IMG/VR virus record: IMGVR_UViG_3300015607_004069
Coordinates: 96,001-160,000 of that record
From: a virus
Taxonomy: Duplodnaviria; Caudoviricetes
Length of the DNA: 64,000 bases
Reading direction: 5' to 3' (one strand)
The notes under the pieces were generated by a model. It saw only the letters and a list, made by a program, of their open reading frames with translations. It was not told the DNA's origin and did not search any database. Shown piece by piece: positions 5,793-37,635 of this stretch. Both the position numbers and the translations under genes were made by a program. Position 1 is the first letter of the stretch; each line of letters starts with the position of its first letter.

Positions 5793-5829
5793 TGATGGCC
5801 GAGAGGCTACCCGCACTCTCGGCCATCAT
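5792..5829. terminator. 14-bp hairpin after SAMase-like gene
   Basis: ATGATGGCCGAGAG / CTCTCGGCCATCAT perfect inverted repeat. Confidence 0.65.
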
Positions 5830-5992
5830 ATTCGTCCTAAGGCGAATGCTAATTATTCCACTCTAATTTTGTGAGACAGTATCGAATGAATATGAGCAAA
5901 TTTGATAAATTCATTGTTCTAATGTCCAACCCATATTTTATGGGTATGTTCGGATTCATTGTTGGTGTGATTGTGCAGATGAAAGGTCCAAA

Positions 5993-8924: not shown

Positions 8925-8936
8925 CTATTATTAATA

Positions 8937-10316
8937 CTAGCTAGACGGCAGGCCAATGGGACCACCTGTCTCATCAGACCACTTCGATTTTTTGGCTGCA
9001 TAATTTCTACCCAGAAGCCCAATAGTCTTAATCAGCGATTGATTGTGGTCAGGATGCCCATCATAAGCATGAAAATCGGCGATCTTGTCACCATGACCAA
9101 GTTCAACCAGTTCTTCCCATAGTTCAGTACCGGGGAAAGGCACACACTCTGAATTCTGATAATGGACACGATTATTATTTTTAGCACCTTCCTTAATAAG
9201 TTCCTGCAATATCGCCTTGTCTTTTTCCCATGCATCAGGAGCCGCACCGGGAAGGTTTTTCATAGTAGTGAAATGGAATTCCAGCCCACTGAATCTGGTG
9301 AGTAGGTACTTGATATTATCGTAAGTCGTTTTTGCACTGAGGCTCTTTTTTGCATTGTCCAATAGTCTCTGATCAAATGACTCAATGCCGAATCGCATAC
9401 CAACACATCCAGAATTAACCATGATATCATAGAGATCATGGGTGGATGTATCTATTCGTCCCATCATGGTCCAAGGCACACCAATGTCTTTTAATCCTTT
9501 GCAGATGTCTTTGATTCTGGCGTTGCCAATATTCCATGTATCGTCATCGAAGAAGAAAGAGCCTAGAGCACCACCTAGTCTGTTTTTGATGGTCTGGAGT
9601 TCATCTACTACCATTTCAGCGGATCGGGCACGATAGGGAGCGTTTTCAAATACTCTACTGGTAGTGCAATAAGTGCAACTGAATGGGCAGGCTCGGCTTG
9701 TATTGACTTGGACTTGCATACGAGCAGTTTCCATGCTCGGATCATAGTAGCGGTTTAGCCCTTCCCATTCCCGATGAGGCAGGAAGTTTGTCCCGTCTGG
9801 TAGCTTATCCAGCTTCTCCAGATGCATGTATTCGTAGGTGCCTTTTCCACCTGTTTCGACAATATCCAGCATTGGCCGTTCCATCTCTCCAGAGATGACG
9901 TGATCAACATGGGCTTGCGCCTTACTGTGTGCTGCATATTTTTTCATATGTGTGCCACAGAACACTATTTTGCAACCTAGTGTGTTCTTGGTCCACAAAG
10001 CCATTTCATTGGTAATGTCGTAGCATGGCGTTGATACATCGAATAAGGCGATATCTGGTTTGTAATTGTAAATGGCCGTTCGAACCTGATCAAAATTTGC
10101 ATGCCTGTCGGCTACACCATCATAAAGATCGGCTGTTATGCCGTGATTGCGAAGGTAAGCAACTGTGTAGGCTAGGCGAAAAGGATAAGGGGCATAACCA
10201 TGAAATGGCATTTCACTAGGTGCTGACCAAGGCCAGCGAGAACCAGAATTTGGGCCTGTGTATAGGACACCATTGCGAGTATGGACATTCGGCACATTGA
10301 CACAGAGAACCTTCAT
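8937..10316 (-). CDS. Cobalamin-binding radical SAM protein (HpnJ-like N-terminus)
   Basis: TSRACPFSCTYC (CxxxCxxC), FFFDDDTW, GIESFDQ, VPFPGTELW; N-terminal GSRWP..YPFRLAY. Confidence 0.9.
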   Translation of the reverse strand: MKVLCVNVPNVHTRNGVLYTGPNSGSRWPWSAPSEMPFHGYAPYPFRLAYTVAYLRNHGITADLYDGVADRHANFDQVRTAIYNYKPDIALFDVSTPCYDITNEMALWTKNTLGCKIVFCGTHMKKYAAHSKAQAHVDHVISGEMERPMLDIVETGGKGTYEYMHLEKLDKLPDGTNFLPHREWEGLNRYYDPSMETARMQVQVNTSRACPFSCTYCTTSRVFENAPYRARSAEMVVDELQTIKNRLGGALGSFFFDDDTWNIGNARIKDICKGLKDIGVPWTMMGRIDTSTHDLYDIMVNSGCVGMRFGIESFDQRLLDNAKKSLSAKTTYDNIKYLLTRFSGLEFHFTTMKNLPGAAPDAWEKDKAILQELIKEGAKNNNRVHYQNSECVPFPGTELWEELVELGHGDKIADFHAYDGHPDHNQSLIKTIGLLGRNYAAKKSKWSDETGGPIGLPSS

Positions 10317-27579: not shown

Positions 27580-27671
27580 GATCTTATCTCTACAAGCATA
27601 GGTTGATAATAATCCTCGGCCATCATTATATTTAGTATTAATGAAGCGTGCATTTTGTATTAGGAATTACT

Positions 27672-31366: not shown

Positions 31367-31591
31367 AATGGGGCCTATTATCGTTAACGCATCCGGACAA
31401 GCTGATGTTCGTTGTGCCTACTGTAAGAAGCCAATCACTAAAAGGCAGTGGATTGGCTTTATTGATAGTTCCAGACAGTGCAGCCGCCTGTGGTGCAGGC
31501 TCTGGTCTGGTCATTGGCTCTGGATGAACTTCAGAAGACGAATCGTATGGGAAAAGAAGACATTTTCGATTAATTATCCGACTATCAGACG

Positions 31592-32296
31592 TTAGTGGAT
31601 CAGCTGATAGGCCAATGGACGAAGCTGATTAAATATGGTCTTGTCTCTTACGAAATTCATAAATTCGATATATTTTATAATAGTGAAGGGAGGAATAGGT
31701 ATAATATTTTCTATCAAATCATCAAAGCCATCAAATTCGAATTTCTGTGCTAGTACGTCCATGGTTTGCTTAGCTGCCTTCACTTCCTTTTGAGTAGCAC
31801 TGCTATTATAGACTCGAAGAAATAATTCCGCTATGCCGTCTGACATCTTTTTGCCCGTCTTCTGATTGCGATAGGAGCCAATATAGGGATAAATTCCTGC
31901 GTTCAACTTGTATACCACTGGATCATAAATTTTATGAATGCCGCTCCATATATAATCGATTATATCATCACGTCTATACCAGTCAGGCGAACCCGGCTCT
32001 ATGAAGACAATGGTGTCTTTTAGACCGTACTCGTTATCATAAATAAAGCATCGATCTGGCTGGTGATTTGGTTTGGTTTTGATTAGTTCTTTGAGATTCC
32101 ACTTGAACAAGTTGAACATGATTTTGTCAGTAGGATCTAATAGCTCTTGATCTTGCTCGCAGAATTCAATGAATTGATCCCATGTCTTGGCTTCATTCTT
32201 ATGATAATCGAAAATAGCATCCCAATTGATAGCTGGATCATCCTCCTGTAAATCCGTGAAACCATAGCCGATAACTTTAGTAAGCCTATTTCCCAT
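31592..32296 (-). CDS. Hypothetical protein
   Basis: 234-aa ORF. Confidence 0.6.
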   Translation of the reverse strand: MGNRLTKVIGYGFTDLQEDDPAINWDAIFDYHKNEAKTWDQFIEFCEQDQELLDPTDKIMFNLFKWNLKELIKTKPNHQPDRCFIYDNEYGLKDTIVFIEPGSPDWYRRDDIIDYIWSGIHKIYDPVVYKLNAGIYPYIGSYRNQKTGKKMSDGIAELFLRVYNSSATQKEVKAAKQTMDVLAQKFEFDGFDDLIENIIPIPPFTIIKYIEFMNFVRDKTIFNQLRPLAYQLIH

Positions 32297-32349
32297 TTAG
32301 CATTTTCCCGATGTGCTGTGGTATTACAATACTATTCATAGGAGATCAT

Positions 32350-33351
32350 ATGAAATATAACGAATTCGAATGTACCTACCATTTCGTCAACAGGTACTGC
32401 AAGGCCACAGGGGTGAAACAGCATGAGAAACCATTGGAATTTTATAATAGGCATCTATTGGATATCGCCCAGAATCTGAAGGAATTTGGCGATGATGGCG
32501 AGATCATTTTCAATCAGGCATCGTTCGAACAGATATGGTGGAAAATCGGCAGGCCGTATTACCGCTTTCATCCGGCAGCGGCTAAGCTTTTCGCAAATAC
32601 ACGCCTAGATGTACCAGTAAAATATCTGAAGTTCCCTAGTCGCGTCTTCGTGATCAATTTCAGCGAAAACGATCCCAGCATGAAATTGGATGACAAGCAT
32701 TATGTCAAATCAGTTCTGGTTTATCGTGGTCTGTCTACCAACATTCAAAAGAATACCAGTACTGAAGCCTTCACTATTTATCTCGATATCGGTGAAATCT
32801 ATTCTGCTGAAATCAATGGAGTCACTGTTACCTTACCATTGCTGACCTTCAGACAGTTGTTTTGGACTCTTGAAACAGAAGACCAGACACTAGAAGAAAT
32901 CATGTGTAAACTGCCAGTCCATCCTTCTGCTTTGCAGGGTGTCATTATTTCCGAAGAGATGCTTATAAAATGCTATCGGCTTATTGTTTCTATGGCCTTT
33001 CTCAAGCAGGATGAAAATCCTATCATCATACCGCATGTTCTGAGCAAGGACTCGGATGAATGGCATAGGGCTGATAAGACAAGGAAGGAACAACTAGAAA
33101 AGAAAGCTATCAGAGTCAGAGAAAGCGAAGGTTGGCTGGTCGGGCATGATGAAATGTTTGAAATGGGTAAGATCGGCAAAGCGATGCCGGGCCAGCCTTC
33201 AGAATGCACAGGACGCGAGCATATGTTTGCTCGTTTTGTGACAGGCCATTGGAAGCTGGTTCGATATGGTCCACAGAGGGAATTCGGCAGGGTTCGCTGG
33301 ATTATGCCTTATATCTCTGGAGAGGGCAAGCCATTTAAACATGATGATTAA
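32350..33351 (+). CDS. Phage hypothetical protein
   Basis: GGAG RBS; C-terminal VTGHWK..YGP..WIMPY..G motif. Confidence 0.65.
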   Translation: MKYNEFECTYHFVNRYCKATGVKQHEKPLEFYNRHLLDIAQNLKEFGDDGEIIFNQASFEQIWWKIGRPYYRFHPAAAKLFANTRLDVPVKYLKFPSRVFVINFSENDPSMKLDDKHYVKSVLVYRGLSTNIQKNTSTEAFTIYLDIGEIYSAEINGVTVTLPLLTFRQLFWTLETEDQTLEEIMCKLPVHPSALQGVIISEEMLIKCYRLIVSMAFLKQDENPIIIPHVLSKDSDEWHRADKTRKEQLEKKAIRVRESEGWLVGHDEMFEMGKIGKAMPGQPSECTGREHMFARFVTGHWKLVRYGPQREFGRVRWIMPYISGEGKPFKHDD

Positions 33352-33356
33352 TTATC

Positions 33357-33675
33357 TGGCTGGTAACGAGATAACGTATTGTCTCGTCATGGGCACTCAG
33401 ACATGAGCATCCAAATCATATGGGCTTCTGATACAATCGAAGCATCCATGGGAGTCACCACAATTCCCCAAACCCAAAGCGAGAGCAAAATTGTGGCCTT
33501 TCTGCCGTTGTAGGAACAGCGGCGCGGTCCATTGTCAGTTGAGCCGTATGATTCAACTGGACGTTGTAGGCACTGACGAATAGTGCCTCGTCGCCGGTCT
33601 TCCAGACGTACCAAGACCCGTGTTGTCTCAGCGCATCAGACACGCTTATGGTTTTGAGCGAATCAAAACTGGCCA
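33357..33675 (+). ncRNA. Large multi-hairpin structured RNA candidate (~320 nt)
   Basis: Ten consecutive stem-loops closed by TGGCTGG/CTGGCCA, intergenic, followed by terminator. Confidence 0.6.
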
Positions 33676-33676
33676 T

Positions 33677-33716
33677 TGATGACCAGACACCATTACGGAT
33701 GTCTGGTCATCATTTT
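33677..33716 (+). terminator. Intrinsic terminator
   Basis: TGATGACCAGACA / TGTCTGGTCATCA then TTTT. Confidence 0.7.
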
Positions 33717-33735
33717 ATCCATTAAGGAATGACAT

Positions 33736-33966
33736 ATGAGATATACAAAGAACCAACTGGAATTCATGATCCAAAAGGCGGTGGCACAACGAGTTCGCAA
33801 CCGTCGATTCCGCAGCTGCCTGTTGTTCACTTCATGCGTGACAGCAGCATTGTTATTCGGGACTTACTATCCGGACAATGTTAAGTCAGGCATTGCAAAA
33901 GCTGGCGAATACGCTAACCTAGGCTGGTTACAGACCAAGACGTTTCTGGCGAGCCTGTTCTCATAA
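33736..33966 (+). CDS. Small membrane-anchored protein
   Basis: AAGGA RBS; one hydrophobic segment. Confidence 0.5.
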   Translation: MRYTKNQLEFMIQKAVAQRVRNRRFRSCLLFTSCVTAALLFGTYYPDNVKSGIAKAGEYANLGWLQTKTFLASLFS

Positions 33967-33983
33967 CGAAAGTGATGTGATCT

Positions 33984-34484
33984 GTGGAAGTCTTTGAAAT
34001 TCATATTACCGGTGATGAATCCATACTGAAGAACGGCATGCAATTGGGTGTTAAGACCATTGCTGTCGATCTTCTTAAACCAGATAAGAGCATCCTTCGA
34101 TCAGAATATATGACTTCACATATTGCGAAGTTTAATAACTTCCAAGACTGTGTAAAATTCGTCGATGGTTTATCGCACCAGTTAGAACAGATGGGAACCA
34201 AGATCATTCGAAAGAAAATCGAGTGCCCACCTTATCAGCACTACCTCAATTCTAGTCTTTATATGGAAAGCCACTTTAAATTATCTCTTGATGCCACACC
34301 TAATTTTCCTATTAGTAGGAATCAAAATAAGGACTATCTACTTGGGACTGACCGTACTTATGACAAATCTGATTATAAGCGTTTTCATGATGCCCATCAG
34401 GATGATGAACTGGAATTGTGCTTGTATGATTCCTTCATAGATGAAGACCTAGACTGGTTATCACTTCCTCGGCATTCATTATAA
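33984..34484 (+). CDS. Hypothetical protein
   Basis: 166-aa ORF. Confidence 0.6.
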   Translation: MEVFEIHITGDESILKNGMQLGVKTIAVDLLKPDKSILRSEYMTSHIAKFNNFQDCVKFVDGLSHQLEQMGTKIIRKKIECPPYQHYLNSSLYMESHFKLSLDATPNFPISRNQNKDYLLGTDRTYDKSDYKRFHDAHQDDELELCLYDSFIDEDLDWLSLPRHSL

Positions 34485-34496
34485 AGGCGATATTCG

Positions 34497-34820
34497 ATGG
34501 CTAATGAAAAAGATCAGGAACTCACTCCGTTAACTGAAGCTGAATTTGAATTAGTAAAGGAAGAATTTAGAAGACTTGATCGTCTGCGTATAGAGAACAG
34601 ACCTCCGCCACAGGGAGAGTACCAATGGGATGGCGGATTAAGTTTCAATGGTGGTTTCGGATCATATCAAGCGTTATATTATAATGGTAAGAAAATAGGT
34701 GGCTTGTTTACTGATAAACCATATACTGGTGAATATAGACCATTTAGTGAAGACGGTGGCGTATGTAAACCATGTGATCCGCCTGTTACACACACTCCAT
34801 TTGCTGGAATGACCATATGA
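34497..34820 (+). CDS. Hypothetical protein
   Basis: 107-aa ORF. Confidence 0.5.
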   Translation: MANEKDQELTPLTEAEFELVKEEFRRLDRLRIENRPPPQGEYQWDGGLSFNGGFGSYQALYYNGKKIGGLFTDKPYTGEYRPFSEDGGVCKPCDPPVTHTPFAGMTI

Positions 34821-35242
34821 ACGTTTATATTGCAGCTCAAGATAAAGAACAAGCATTAGATATTCGAGCAATGCTTTTTGATAATGCTAAAGATGTTGAA
34901 TTTTCATGCCGCTGGCTCGATCAGGATTTCAAACGCACATTGACCTACACTGAAGAAGAACGAAACGTCATCGCCACCCAATGTTATGAGGACATAGATA
35001 AGTGTGATGTTCTTATCCTGCTTGCCTCTGATAACAAGATGAAGTGCTCTGGAGGTAAGTTCGTAGAGGCAGGGTATGCTCTCGGTCAAAATAAGGATGT
35101 TATCATTCTAGGTCAGCCGGAAAACATGCTCTTGTGGGCGAGAAAGAATATTAAAGCAGTTCAAACAATATCACAATTATTATCAAATATCAATGCACTC
35201 AGTGAATCTCATAGAATCCGGAATGCTGAGCTTAACGCGTAG
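34817..35242 (+). CDS. Nucleoside 2-deoxyribosyltransferase/hydrolase-like protein
   Basis: VYIAA..EDIDKCDVLIL..GKFVEAGYALG. Confidence 0.75.
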   Translation: MNVYIAAQDKEQALDIRAMLFDNAKDVEFSCRWLDQDFKRTLTYTEEERNVIATQCYEDIDKCDVLILLASDNKMKCSGGKFVEAGYALGQNKDVIILGQPENMLLWARKNIKAVQTISQLLSNINALSESHRIRNAELNA

Positions 35243-35435
35243 AATCTGACGATTGGTTTTTATCTGACTGGATACATAAGTTAATAAATATCGCAACAAT
35301 GCCAATTCCTAATAACGCACCGGAAGCGACGAGGTTATTTCCGTGAATGCCCTCAAACAAGGTGTTGATATAGATAGTCAATAGAAAGAAAGCTGCCCAG
35401 ACAACACAGACCAAATTGATAGCTGATTTAGCCAT
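35232..35435 (-). CDS. Small membrane protein
   Basis: Two hydrophobic segments. Confidence 0.5.
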   Translation of the reverse strand: MAKSAINLVCVVWAAFFLLTIYINTLFEGIHGNNLVASGALLGIGIVAIFINLCIQSDKNQSSDSTR

Positions 35436-35514
35436 ATTATTTTCCTAATGGTTGGAATTAGATAATACATTATCTGCTAGTACATACTTTAAACCATGTC
35501 CTACAGGATGAACT

Positions 35515-37116
35515 ATGAATACTATGTTTCATAATGCCAGAGTTTCTTTTGCTATCTGCACACCCATGGCGAAAGTGACCAATCCTCATGGCGTGTTGAT
35601 GTTCGACACATTGACACCGGAATGGCATAGAGCACGAGCCAGTCTAGCCATGCCTACCAACATCAATCTGGTAGAACTTTTAGCCGATGGTATGGAAGTC
35701 GGCGATGCCCGTTCAAAGATCGCCAAACTGTGTCTGGAAAGCAAACCAATACCAGAATTCTTATTCTTCTTAGATTCTGACGTTATCGTCCCATCAGATG
35801 CCTTGACCAAACTATTTTACAATGCCAGATGTTATCCAGACTACGATGTCTATGCTGGCGTTTATTGCTCTAAGACCAATCCACCAGAACCATTGATCTA
35901 TGGAGACAATGGCACAGGAGCCATCTGGGATTGGGCAGTAGGCGATCTGCTCATGGACGGCAGAGTGAAAAGCGTCCATATGGGTCTGACACTGATTAGA
36001 ACCAGTGCCTTCCGGAAGCTTCTGGATTCTGGCCTTGTCCATGGTACAGGGGATGACCAAGAAGACGAGCCGTTCTTCAAAACAGTCAATGAGACTGAAT
36101 TTGTCAATGGCAATAACCTGCTCAAGCGAGGAACAGAGGACATTTACTTCTGTGATAAGCTTATAAAGGCTGGCGGCAAAATATTCGTCAATACCGGAGT
36201 GTTAGCCGCCCATCACTGTCGGACCACAGGCATAATGTATGGTCTTCCGGTCGATAAGACCAATAACCCATTTAGACGCGCCAAATGGATGAAGGATGGC
36301 GACAAGACTCAGGATGTTCAGGAAGCCGAGAATCTGATCTACGAAGGGCCTTGTGAATGTGTCAAATATCTGACTAATGAAACGGAATTTCCAGAACAAT
36401 ATAAGCAGCTGGACAATTCAACGCTTTGCCTTGAAAATTGCGTTGACTGTAAAGGCACTGGCCATGTCAAAAGGCCATATAAGATAGCTATCGATATTGG
36501 AGCCGGTGATACGCGCAGAGAATGGCCGGGTTATAAGACTTACACTACTGATATTCGTAGCGATTCCAAGCCTGATTATGTTCAGGATTCACGTGCTCTA
36601 ACGCTGCCAAATAACCATTTTGATCTAGTGGCAAGCTCACACCATCTAGAGCATATTGGCCGATGGGATCAGGAAAAAGTCTGGAAGGAAATGTTTAAAA
36701 TCTGCAAGCCCGGTGGCAGAATTGAGCATGTCGTTCCTAATATACAATGGGCCGCTGCCTCCATTATGGAGAACAACATAGACGAGCACGTCATGAATGT
36801 CATTTATGGAGCACAGGAGGCTCATGGATATGCTCGTGAATTCAATACTCATTTCTTCGGCTATACCCCTGAGTTAGCTAAGGCACTGGCAAGATCAGTC
36901 GGATTCGTTGATGTAGAAACTGGAGACTGGCGACAGAATCCCAAGTTAGGTTATAACCTCCTGATAAAAGGTCGTAAGCCTTATCCCGATGAAGTAGTCA
37001 AAGACACAGTAGTCATGAAAGCCAGAAAACAGGAAGAAAAGGATAAAAAGAAAGAAAAAGAGCCAGAAAAAACAGATCAGAAACCAAGCCGGTCCAGAAG
37101 ATCAGCAGCAAAATAA
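35515..37116 (+). CDS. GT2-like glycosyltransferase fused to class I methyltransferase
   Basis: FFLDSDV, MGLTLI, TEDIYFC (GT-A); DIGAG, SHHLEH, CKPGG (MTase). Confidence 0.85.
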   Translation: MNTMFHNARVSFAICTPMAKVTNPHGVLMFDTLTPEWHRARASLAMPTNINLVELLADGMEVGDARSKIAKLCLESKPIPEFLFFLDSDVIVPSDALTKLFYNARCYPDYDVYAGVYCSKTNPPEPLIYGDNGTGAIWDWAVGDLLMDGRVKSVHMGLTLIRTSAFRKLLDSGLVHGTGDDQEDEPFFKTVNETEFVNGNNLLKRGTEDIYFCDKLIKAGGKIFVNTGVLAAHHCRTTGIMYGLPVDKTNNPFRRAKWMKDGDKTQDVQEAENLIYEGPCECVKYLTNETEFPEQYKQLDNSTLCLENCVDCKGTGHVKRPYKIAIDIGAGDTRREWPGYKTYTTDIRSDSKPDYVQDSRALTLPNNHFDLVASSHHLEHIGRWDQEKVWKEMFKICKPGGRIEHVVPNIQWAAASIMENNIDEHVMNVIYGAQEAHGYAREFNTHFFGYTPELAKALARSVGFVDVETGDWRQNPKLGYNLLIKGRKPYPDEVVKDTVVMKARKQEEKDKKKEKEPEKTDQKPSRSRRSAAK

Positions 37117-37133
37117 GGCCTGATTTGACACTA

Positions 37134-37171
37134 AAAGAGGTGTCTTTCATTATAACGAAAGACACCTCTTT
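37134..37171. terminator. Bidirectional terminator between convergent genes
   Basis: AAAGAGGTGTCTTTC / GAAAGACACCTCTTT. Confidence 0.75.
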
Positions 37172-37188
37172 CCATATAGGATTTGAAA

Positions 37189-37635
37189 CTATTTGATATA
37201 ATGCGAGATCAGAATACCATTCAGGTGGTCCATCTCATGGTTGAAAATGCGGCTTCGAAGACCAGCCAACTGAGTTTTCTTAACCTTCCCGTCCTTCATG
37301 CAATAGTATGAGAAGGCTGTGTTGACAGGACGCGATATACTAGCCGTCATACCCGGAAGAGACAAACAAGCTTCATTGCCCATAGTCTGTTTGTAGGATG
37401 TGCTCGTTATTTCTGGATTGATGAAGATAGAAATGCTATTGTCAGCCATCATAACGCCCAATATACGCTGATCTATGCCAATCTGGTTGGCCGCTAGACC
37501 ATAGGCCTTGTGTTCTCTGATAGTCTCAATAATGTCAGAGATAAGTGGATTTAAATGGTCTGGAGAGAAATCAGTGACTGGATCTATCATCTTAACCAGT
37601 AACGGATTTGGATGGATAATAATATCACGTGGCAT
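37189..37635 (-). CDS. def: Peptide deformylase
   Basis: GLAANQIG, EACLS, HEMDHLNG. Confidence 0.92.
   Translation of the reverse strand: MPRDIIIHPNPLLVKMIDPVTDFSPDHLNPLISDIIETIREHKAYGLAANQIGIDQRILGVMMADNSISIFINPEITSTSYKQTMGNEACLSLPGMTASISRPVNTAFSYYCMKDGKVKKTQLAGLRSRIFNHEMDHLNGILISHYIK

Follow-up and report, generated by a model that had tools for sequence, protein, structure and literature searches.

A hairpin-rich gap lies between an AcrVA2-like gene and a gene for a 76-aa protein in the phage DNA analyzed here, and the question is whether this gap encodes an RNA and what such an RNA could do. The window, i.e., the whole stretch of 64,000 nt that was analyzed, corresponds to bases 96001-160000 of the 181,658-bp IMG/VR virus record IMGVR_UViG_3300015607_004069, and since this record is only 51% complete according to CheckV, its source is regarded as a huge phage. 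An initial annotation, based on the letters of the DNA, had read the gap as one noncoding RNA of ~320 nt with ten hairpins, closed by a long-range stem ending in CCA and followed by its own terminator. The RNA element is genuine, previously uncatalogued, modular and narrowly distributed, and its role is probably regulatory. The features of the locus are given below in window positions, with related contigs designated L056, L057, and so on.

32350-33351, + strand: AcrVA2-like gene (precomputed Pfam match PF26125)
33357-33387, + strand: 5' strand of the closing stem (33357-63) and hairpin 1 (33366-87), non-conserved
33375-33381, + strand: promoter-like word CGTATTG, from the alignment of homologues and 6-mer enrichment
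33389-33413, + strand: hairpin A, flanks AUGGGC and GCAUCCA around a distal stem-loop, from the homologue alignment
33420-33448, + strand: hairpin B, AUGGGCUUC-UGAUACAAUC-GAAGCAUCCA, the best-conserved block
33452-33462, + strand: conserved GAGUCACCACA after the twin hairpins, from the nhmmer alignment (GAGCCACCACA in L057 and L072)
33458-33559, + strand: hairpins 4-6 (33458-96, 33504-23 and 33537-59), from folding, stable in the window phage
33560-33669, + strand: hairpins 7-10 (33560-92, 33596-618, 33619-44 and 33651-69), conserved in L056
33677-33716, + strand: intrinsic terminator, a 15-bp stem with one bulged A, loop AUUAC, then UUUU
33736-33966, + strand: gene for a 76-aa single-pass membrane protein, from gene tables and the comparison of relatives
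33984-34484, + strand: gene for a 166-aa protein, with 77 homologues found

All ten stems originally listed are in the sequence, and so are the three internal repeats and the 7-bp long-range stem, in which 33357-63 pairs with 33670-76. The terminator is also present; its stem, which spans 33677-33712 and precedes UUUU, is 15 bp long with one bulged A. When the gap was folded, the + strand gave a minimum free energy (MFE) of -136 kcal/mol with a z-score of -5.67, and 0 of 100 shuffled sequences were as stable; the likely transcript, 33387-33716, gave a z-score of -5.09. The minus strand was nearly as stable (-133.9 kcal/mol, z -4.60), and the statement that most wobbles are G-U on the + strand failed, because the MFE structures contained 15 G-U pairs on the minus strand versus 10 on the plus strand; thus, the wobble argument does not assign the strand. 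The RNA is on the + strand, where the terminator U-run and the promoter-like word are found, and where alone two U-A to U-G changes observed in L056 remain paired. Within the RNA, repeats of 8-15 nt are dispersed only, and no tandem repeat was detected by TRF at a score of at least 30. The loops of hairpins 7, 9 and 10 share RCGMAU (ACGAAU, GCGCAU and GCGAAU, respectively). Among the gaps tested, roughly half of those in the genome, this one had the most extreme z-score. A second strongly structured gap was observed at window positions 5793-5992 (z -4.7 on the + strand and -4.4 on the - strand), and a third one outside the window, at 74003-74208 of the record (z -4.5).

The comparison with known RNA families, the first check proposed for this element, gave no matches in the window at the gathering score of Rfam 15, whose families include GOLLD, ROOL, tmRNA, RNase P, 6S, SRP, introns, ToxI and riboswitches, and the same was true for L056, L057, L059, L061 and L072. 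At E<=10, only noise matches to miRNA and snoRNA families were obtained, all of them at the terminator hairpin. ARAGORN found no tmRNA or tRNA at default or -ps80 settings. With -ps70 and -ps50 it called a "tmRNA" at exactly 33357-33676, and with these settings the genome gave 399-829 calls and its shuffled versions 450-1073; therefore, the relaxed call is worthless, and a tmRNA or tRNA-like reading was discarded. Other candidates were rejected as well: a CsrB-like sponge, since 4-5 GGA motifs were counted by eye versus ~6 expected, with no enrichment, and a base-pairing sRNA, since complementarity in the 181-kb record did not exceed chance (7 found against ~7 expected) and no antisense target was longer than 12 nt. 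With regard to an RNA anti-CRISPR, which is a solitary mimic of a CRISPR repeat, the segment CUGCCGUUGUAGG presumably bears a partial resemblance to type I-F CRISPR repeats, with a different predicted pairing.

Relatives were reached through the 77 homologues of the 166-aa protein, which led to related contigs. The search with nhmmer and other tools for RNA homologues, also suggested at the outset, was productive, and these were found in four other lineages (L057/L058, L072, L059-61 and L056), so the RNA is confined to the window phage and its closest uncultivated huge-phage relatives, 4-5 lineages in all. Four RNA queries used with nhmmer detected no RNA in ~50 loci of more distant relatives, which were chosen by a 36-58% identical 166-aa protein, and in P0011, P0013 and P0014 the gap itself is absent. 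A specific hairpin-B pattern gave 0 matches in IMG/VR, JGI metagenomes and GTDB genomes, a loose pattern of the twin flanks hit 51 viral contigs, all of them chance matches, and blastn and tblastn against GenBank phages returned no match for the RNA or the upstream protein. The initial proposal of a new class of large phage RNAs, in the manner of GOLLD and ROOL, is therefore not borne out, as the family belongs to a handful of closely related phages. Positions 1 to ~47 of the ENA contig L059 resemble an Illumina adapter joined to phage DNA, probably an assembly artifact.

The homologues also changed the picture of the fold. The whole fold is common to no relative; relatives share modules only, and the middle is unique to the window phage, which does not agree with a single ten-hairpin structure closed by a CCA-ending stem. 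With the window, L057, L072 and L061 share only the 5' ~100 nt, and from the twin hairpins to the terminator, a distance of ~230-350 nt, the window type and the L057 type bear no relation to each other. For hairpins 4-6, no homologue was detected in other lineages. Neither hairpin 1 nor the closing stem is conserved in any relative. Hairpin 1 wraps the promoter-like word, and the closing stem has its 5' strand upstream of this word, so both elements are probably not part of the RNA.

The shared modules, in turn, are 78-91% identical between relatives versus 57-70% for the flanking genes. The identity of hairpin B was 91% to L057; to L061 it was 82%, and there a C-G pair is replaced by U-A, a compensatory change. 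GAGYCACCACA, located 3' of this hairpin, is conserved. In hairpin A, the flanks AUGGGC and GCAUCCA are fixed, and the distal stem covaries freely, its sequence and length differing in every lineage (CUCA/UGAG in the window, AUUUCAA/UUGAAAU in L057, and others in L072 and L061). Conservation includes loops, such as that of hairpin B and the GCGAA loop of hairpin 10. The RNAs of L057, L072 and L061 showed compensatory changes at 19 of 115 predicted pairs, a figure from three sequences only and from a structure derived from the same three sequences; shuffled controls gave 6.6 ± 2.1, with 0 of 500 reaching 19, and slid controls gave 1-3. As only 4-5 lineages are available, the covariation statistics are weak. 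In L056, hairpins 7-10 are 78-83% identical to the window, versus 65-70% for the flanking genes, and within hairpins 8-10 the four stem substitutions all keep pairing: one is a compensatory U-A to C-G change in hairpin 10, and two are U-A to U-G wobbles possible on the + strand only. In L056, the register proposed for hairpin 9 (CGUGU/ACACG) is disrupted and another one, CG..UGUCU/AGACA..CG, is retained. An antisense ORF of 73 aa, whose conservation at the codon level had been named as a refutation of the noncoding status, is interrupted by stops in L056, and this status therefore stands. The antisense ORFs of 73 and 75 aa had no family match and were rejected as genes, and no ORF is common to the homologues.

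These data bear on two simpler explanations. The gap could be a hairpin-rich spacer or 3' UTR with no specific fold, located at a hot spot of recombination in which accessory genes are exchanged, and this is consistent with its mosaic composition, the lineage-specific gene content upstream, the loss of two thirds of the element tolerated by L056, and the strong structure of other gaps in the genome. Moreover, the z-score of the RNA in L057 and L061 is only about -1.1 over the whole gap, and the twin-hairpin segments alone gave values of -1.3 to +1.0 and are not thermodynamically exceptional. A mere spacer, however, would not be expected to exceed its coding flanks in conservation, loops of hairpins B and 10 included, to keep a fixed distance to the promoter-like word, or to accumulate compensatory changes, and we consider this explanation improbable. 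The second is that the inverted repeats work as DNA, i.e., as an origin, a packaging site or a recombination site, in line with the two strands folding equally well. Against it, hairpin A has flanks that are fixed and a distal stem of variable length, substitutions are tolerated as G-U on the + strand only, the terminator has a U-run and one orientation relative to the genes, and the element is single-copy, with no iterons found; hence, a function at the DNA level is given very little credence.

The 5' boundary of the RNA was approached through the words preceding the genes. In the 80 nt upstream of ORF starts, the top enriched 6-mers of the whole genome were GTATTA (5-fold), TAGTAT (4.4-fold) and AGTATT (3.6-fold), and these cluster 14-17 nt before start codons. 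Genes of L056 and L057 also have this word, or its variant CGTATT, ahead of them. TAGTATT(A/G) is often placed 14-17 nt before a start codon that has no Shine-Dalgarno sequence, for example at window positions 27634-27640 and 8932-8938 (- strand), and this suggests a phage promoter that would produce nearly leaderless mRNAs. At the gap, the window has CGTATTG, a weaker variant of the word; the relatives have CAGTATTG/CAGTATTT, with (C)AGTATTG as the shared form. In the four promoter-bearing homologues (window, L057, L072 and L061), GTATTG lies exactly 14 nt before the first AUGGGC. From the word enrichment, we infer a phage promoter at 33375-81 and a transcript start at ~33388. The 3' end would be set by the terminator at 33677-33716, and every homologue has a terminator hairpin at the same place with a different sequence.

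The position of this first AUG, 14 nt after the word, is that of the start codons of the apparently leaderless genes, and AUG GGC UUY UGA is kept in all four homologues with one change, which is synonymous. A leaderless mini-ORF of 5-20 codons (AUG GGC ...) could thus be considered, its translation being the function, as in control by a leader peptide. Nevertheless, the encoded peptides differ (MGTQT in the window versus MGLSLV in L072), a common frame for the two AUGs is seen in no more than two of four lineages, as expected by chance, a conserved stem encloses the second AUG, and the lone synonymous change could just as well be a compensatory pair. Translation of such an ORF is, in our opinion, a most unlikely basis for the conservation observed.

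One lineage carries a natural deletion of the element. Of the element, L056 retains only hairpins 7-10 and the terminator, along with the small gene; it has lost the twin hairpins and the promoter-like word. The deletion, at L056:7540-7590, joined the 3' arm of hairpin 6 to an AAA gene, which is cut after ...LLFNP. It removed the last ~28 codons of AAA, a metallophosphatase gene, neighboring genes and two thirds of the RNA, and the final 12 residues of the L056 AAA protein are now read from former RNA sequence. The idea that the RNA is the remnant of an AAA pseudogene was therefore rejected, as the reverse occurred, with the deletion joining the AAA gene to the middle of the RNA. The arrangement in L056 suggests either that read-through is independent of the twin hairpins or that the 3' hairpins have their own function, and hairpins 7-10 may act on their own.

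The neighboring genes indicated to which of them the RNA belongs. The gene 3' of the RNA always encodes a 69-76-aa single-pass membrane protein, with the terminator ~20 nt ahead, and this gene is present in five of five RNA-bearing lineages and in none of ~50 other relatives. In the window, its ribosome-binding site AAGGA (33724) is located 8 nt past the terminator U-run, and the start codon is at 33736. The upstream neighbor differs per lineage, being AcrVA2-like in the window, two ~80-aa genes in L057, a 114-aa gene in L061 and AAA in L056, and because of this variation the RNA is linked to the downstream gene. A link to the AcrVA2-like gene was discarded, as the RNA-bearing relatives carry other upstream genes and a 38%-identical homologue in L004 has no RNA, the next ORF starting 50 nt past its stop. 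Despite its precomputed PF26125 assignment, the AcrVA2-like protein had no match in the Pfam copy used; an exhaustive HMMER search recovered 420 representatives at E<=0.001, with few close homologues.

Farther downstream, the 166-aa protein is present in many huge-phage contigs, including LR756511.1 (595 kb). Neither this protein nor the 76-aa one had a match in Pfam, PHROGs or NCBIfam; PADLOC returned only AbiEi models for the former (E 2.9e-10) and no match for the latter. The AlphaFold2 model of the 166-aa protein (pLDDT 96.5) showed a tandem ferredoxin/ACT-like fold, with no Foldseek match at E<=0.001 and a best VIA-align Z of 6.4, to ACT/ferredoxin-like domains. It could represent a phage version of an antitoxin-like protein, and its analysis revealed no connection to the RNA. 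In the more distant relatives L081, L083-L085, L087 and L097, another small membrane-protein gene, on the opposite strand and without the RNA, occupies this site ~270-290 nt before the 166-aa gene, and the word TGTATTTA precedes the latter. The near-identical strains L103, L105 and L106 differ from window positions 31484-36990 by SNPs that are clustered in blocks, for example 8 within the 76-aa gene and 0 in the preceding 2.3 kb, a pattern more like recombination mosaics than an even divergence. The RNA is identical between strains that are 99.1% identical overall, but so is the entire 31484-33779 block, which makes this comparison uninformative.

The strict co-occurrence of the RNA and the small gene, together with one putative promoter and a terminator between both in all homologues, recalls type III toxin-antitoxin loci, which have the order promoter-RNA-terminator-gene and a terminator that sets the RNA:protein ratio (PMC3401426). 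In a pair of this kind, the RNA would neutralize or accompany the small protein or the 166-aa protein. A tandem repeat array is absent, though, the downstream proteins are not similar to ToxN, CptN or TenpN according to the PADLOC results for both, and the 76-aa product is a membrane protein and not an RNase, so a toxin-antitoxin-like pair is very unlikely.

The coupling to a terminator and to one small gene argues for a cis-acting leader more than for a sponge or an anti-defense RNA. We tentatively favor, with somewhat less than even confidence, a leader that gates read-through to the small gene, either by antitermination similar to that of put and canT or as an attenuator; the order of promoter, two stem-loops, further hairpins, terminator and genes matches the logic of put and canT. 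The proposed cassette would be clade-specific and consist, on the + strand, of the promoter-like word (33375-81), a structured RNA of ~330 nt (~33388-33716), the terminator and the small gene. The terminator would halt transcripts arriving from the upstream accessory genes, here the AcrVA2-like gene, and would also cap most of those begun at the cassette's own promoter. Hairpins A and B, proximal to the promoter, would set the read-through of RNA polymerase into the small gene and the co-directional genes, in the way of HK022 put or Tn916 canT, or else in that of an attenuator, and the variable downstream hairpins would be folding, stability or pause elements. Of this model, the conservation, the compensatory changes, the layout and the joint occurrence with the small gene are observed, and the promoter, both transcript ends and the influence on read-through are inferred. 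In agreement with this, only the word at the fixed distance of 14 nt and the two stem-loops are common to all promoter-bearing homologues. No further GTATT word was found on the + strand from 33376 to 37500, and therefore the co-directional genes at 33736-37116 need read-through.

The main alternative is a stand-alone structured RNA acting in trans, as a protein scaffold, a sponge or an anti-defense decoy, with its own promoter and terminator and with repeated motifs (two UGGGC..GCAUCCA stems and three RCGMAU loops) as multiple binding sites. The promoter-like word and strong terminator, the absence of a conserved ORF, the recurrence of loop and stem motifs, the conservation of hairpins 7-10 in L056 without the 5' part, and candidate anti-defense neighbors, AcrVA2-like upstream and AbiEi-like downstream, would all be compatible with it. 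Nonetheless, the homologues have no common fold, with ~230-350 nt unrelated between the window and L057 types, there is no room for a separate promoter of the downstream genes, the co-occurrence with one small gene is strict, and an antisense target longer than 12 nt is lacking in the 181-kb record; an action in trans is thus considered somewhat less likely than the leader. A particular form of it was given a small chance, in which an anti-defense or host-takeover RNA would be a multi-site decoy made in excess over the co-transcribed small membrane protein, with the stoichiometry set by the terminator, as part of an anti-defense island beside the AcrVA2-like and AbiEi-like genes.

Almost all that is known of huge phages comes from metagenomes, and hardly any of their regulatory RNAs have been charted. 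The results add an RNA element that has defined bounds and is backed by comparisons among relatives, a candidate for a phage promoter word (TAGTATT(A/G), frequently located 14-17 nt ahead of start codons), and a testable design composed of promoter, twin hairpins, terminator and small membrane protein. If the twin hairpins are put/canT-like, RNA-only processive antitermination extends to a very different phage group, and if the RNA acts in trans, it is a new phage RNA effector. The general impact is moderate because the family is narrow, with 4-5 lineages.

When compared with known systems, the element is, like GOLLD, ROOL and tmRNA, a long multi-hairpin noncoding RNA in a phage genome, but it is much smaller than GOLLD and ROOL and has neither a conserved global architecture nor an Rfam match. 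To tmRNA it is superficially similar in its tRNA-like closure, a 7-bp stem adjoining a hairpin with a CGAAU loop; however, the acceptor-like stem has G3-C70 where tmRNA has G3-U70, the loop is AGCGAAU, and this stem is not conserved. ToxIN, CptIN and TenpIN also combine a promoter, a noncoding RNA, a terminator and a protein gene, with RNA and gene co-inherited (PMC3401426), whereas here no tandem array or ToxN-like endoribonuclease is found and a 76-aa membrane protein adjoins. As in riboswitches and attenuators, a structured leader ends in a terminator just before a ribosome-binding site, and, as in attenuators, CUGGCCA located 5' of the terminator can pair in the window and L056 with either the upstream strand or UGACCAG, which is the 5' arm of the terminator, this predicted alternative pairing having only 5-6 bp. 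In contrast to riboswitches, Rfam gave no match, and even close relatives differ in the putative 'aptamer'; a riboswitch was rejected, as a conserved core for all members is absent and only ~100 nt at the 5' end are common to the window and L057 types.

The closest counterparts are the cis-acting antiterminator RNAs. The put RNA of HK022, of ~70 nt, forms two stem-loops just downstream of PL and acts in cis on RNA polymerase (PMC9378689), and Tn916 combines an insulator terminator with the cis antiterminator RNA canT, an established design in mobile elements (PMC11658703). The present element differs in having 230-400 nt with more hairpins between the stem-loops and the terminator, and in a relative, L056, which lacks the stem-loops yet keeps the terminator and the genes; the likeness to put and canT is one of layout. 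This layout comprises, in the genome of a virus or mobile element, two adjacent stem-loops of ~60-85 nt directly downstream of a promoter or promoter-like site and, after them, an intrinsic terminator, through which transcription must pass to reach the downstream genes and which insulates these genes from upstream transcription (PMC9378689, PMC11658703).
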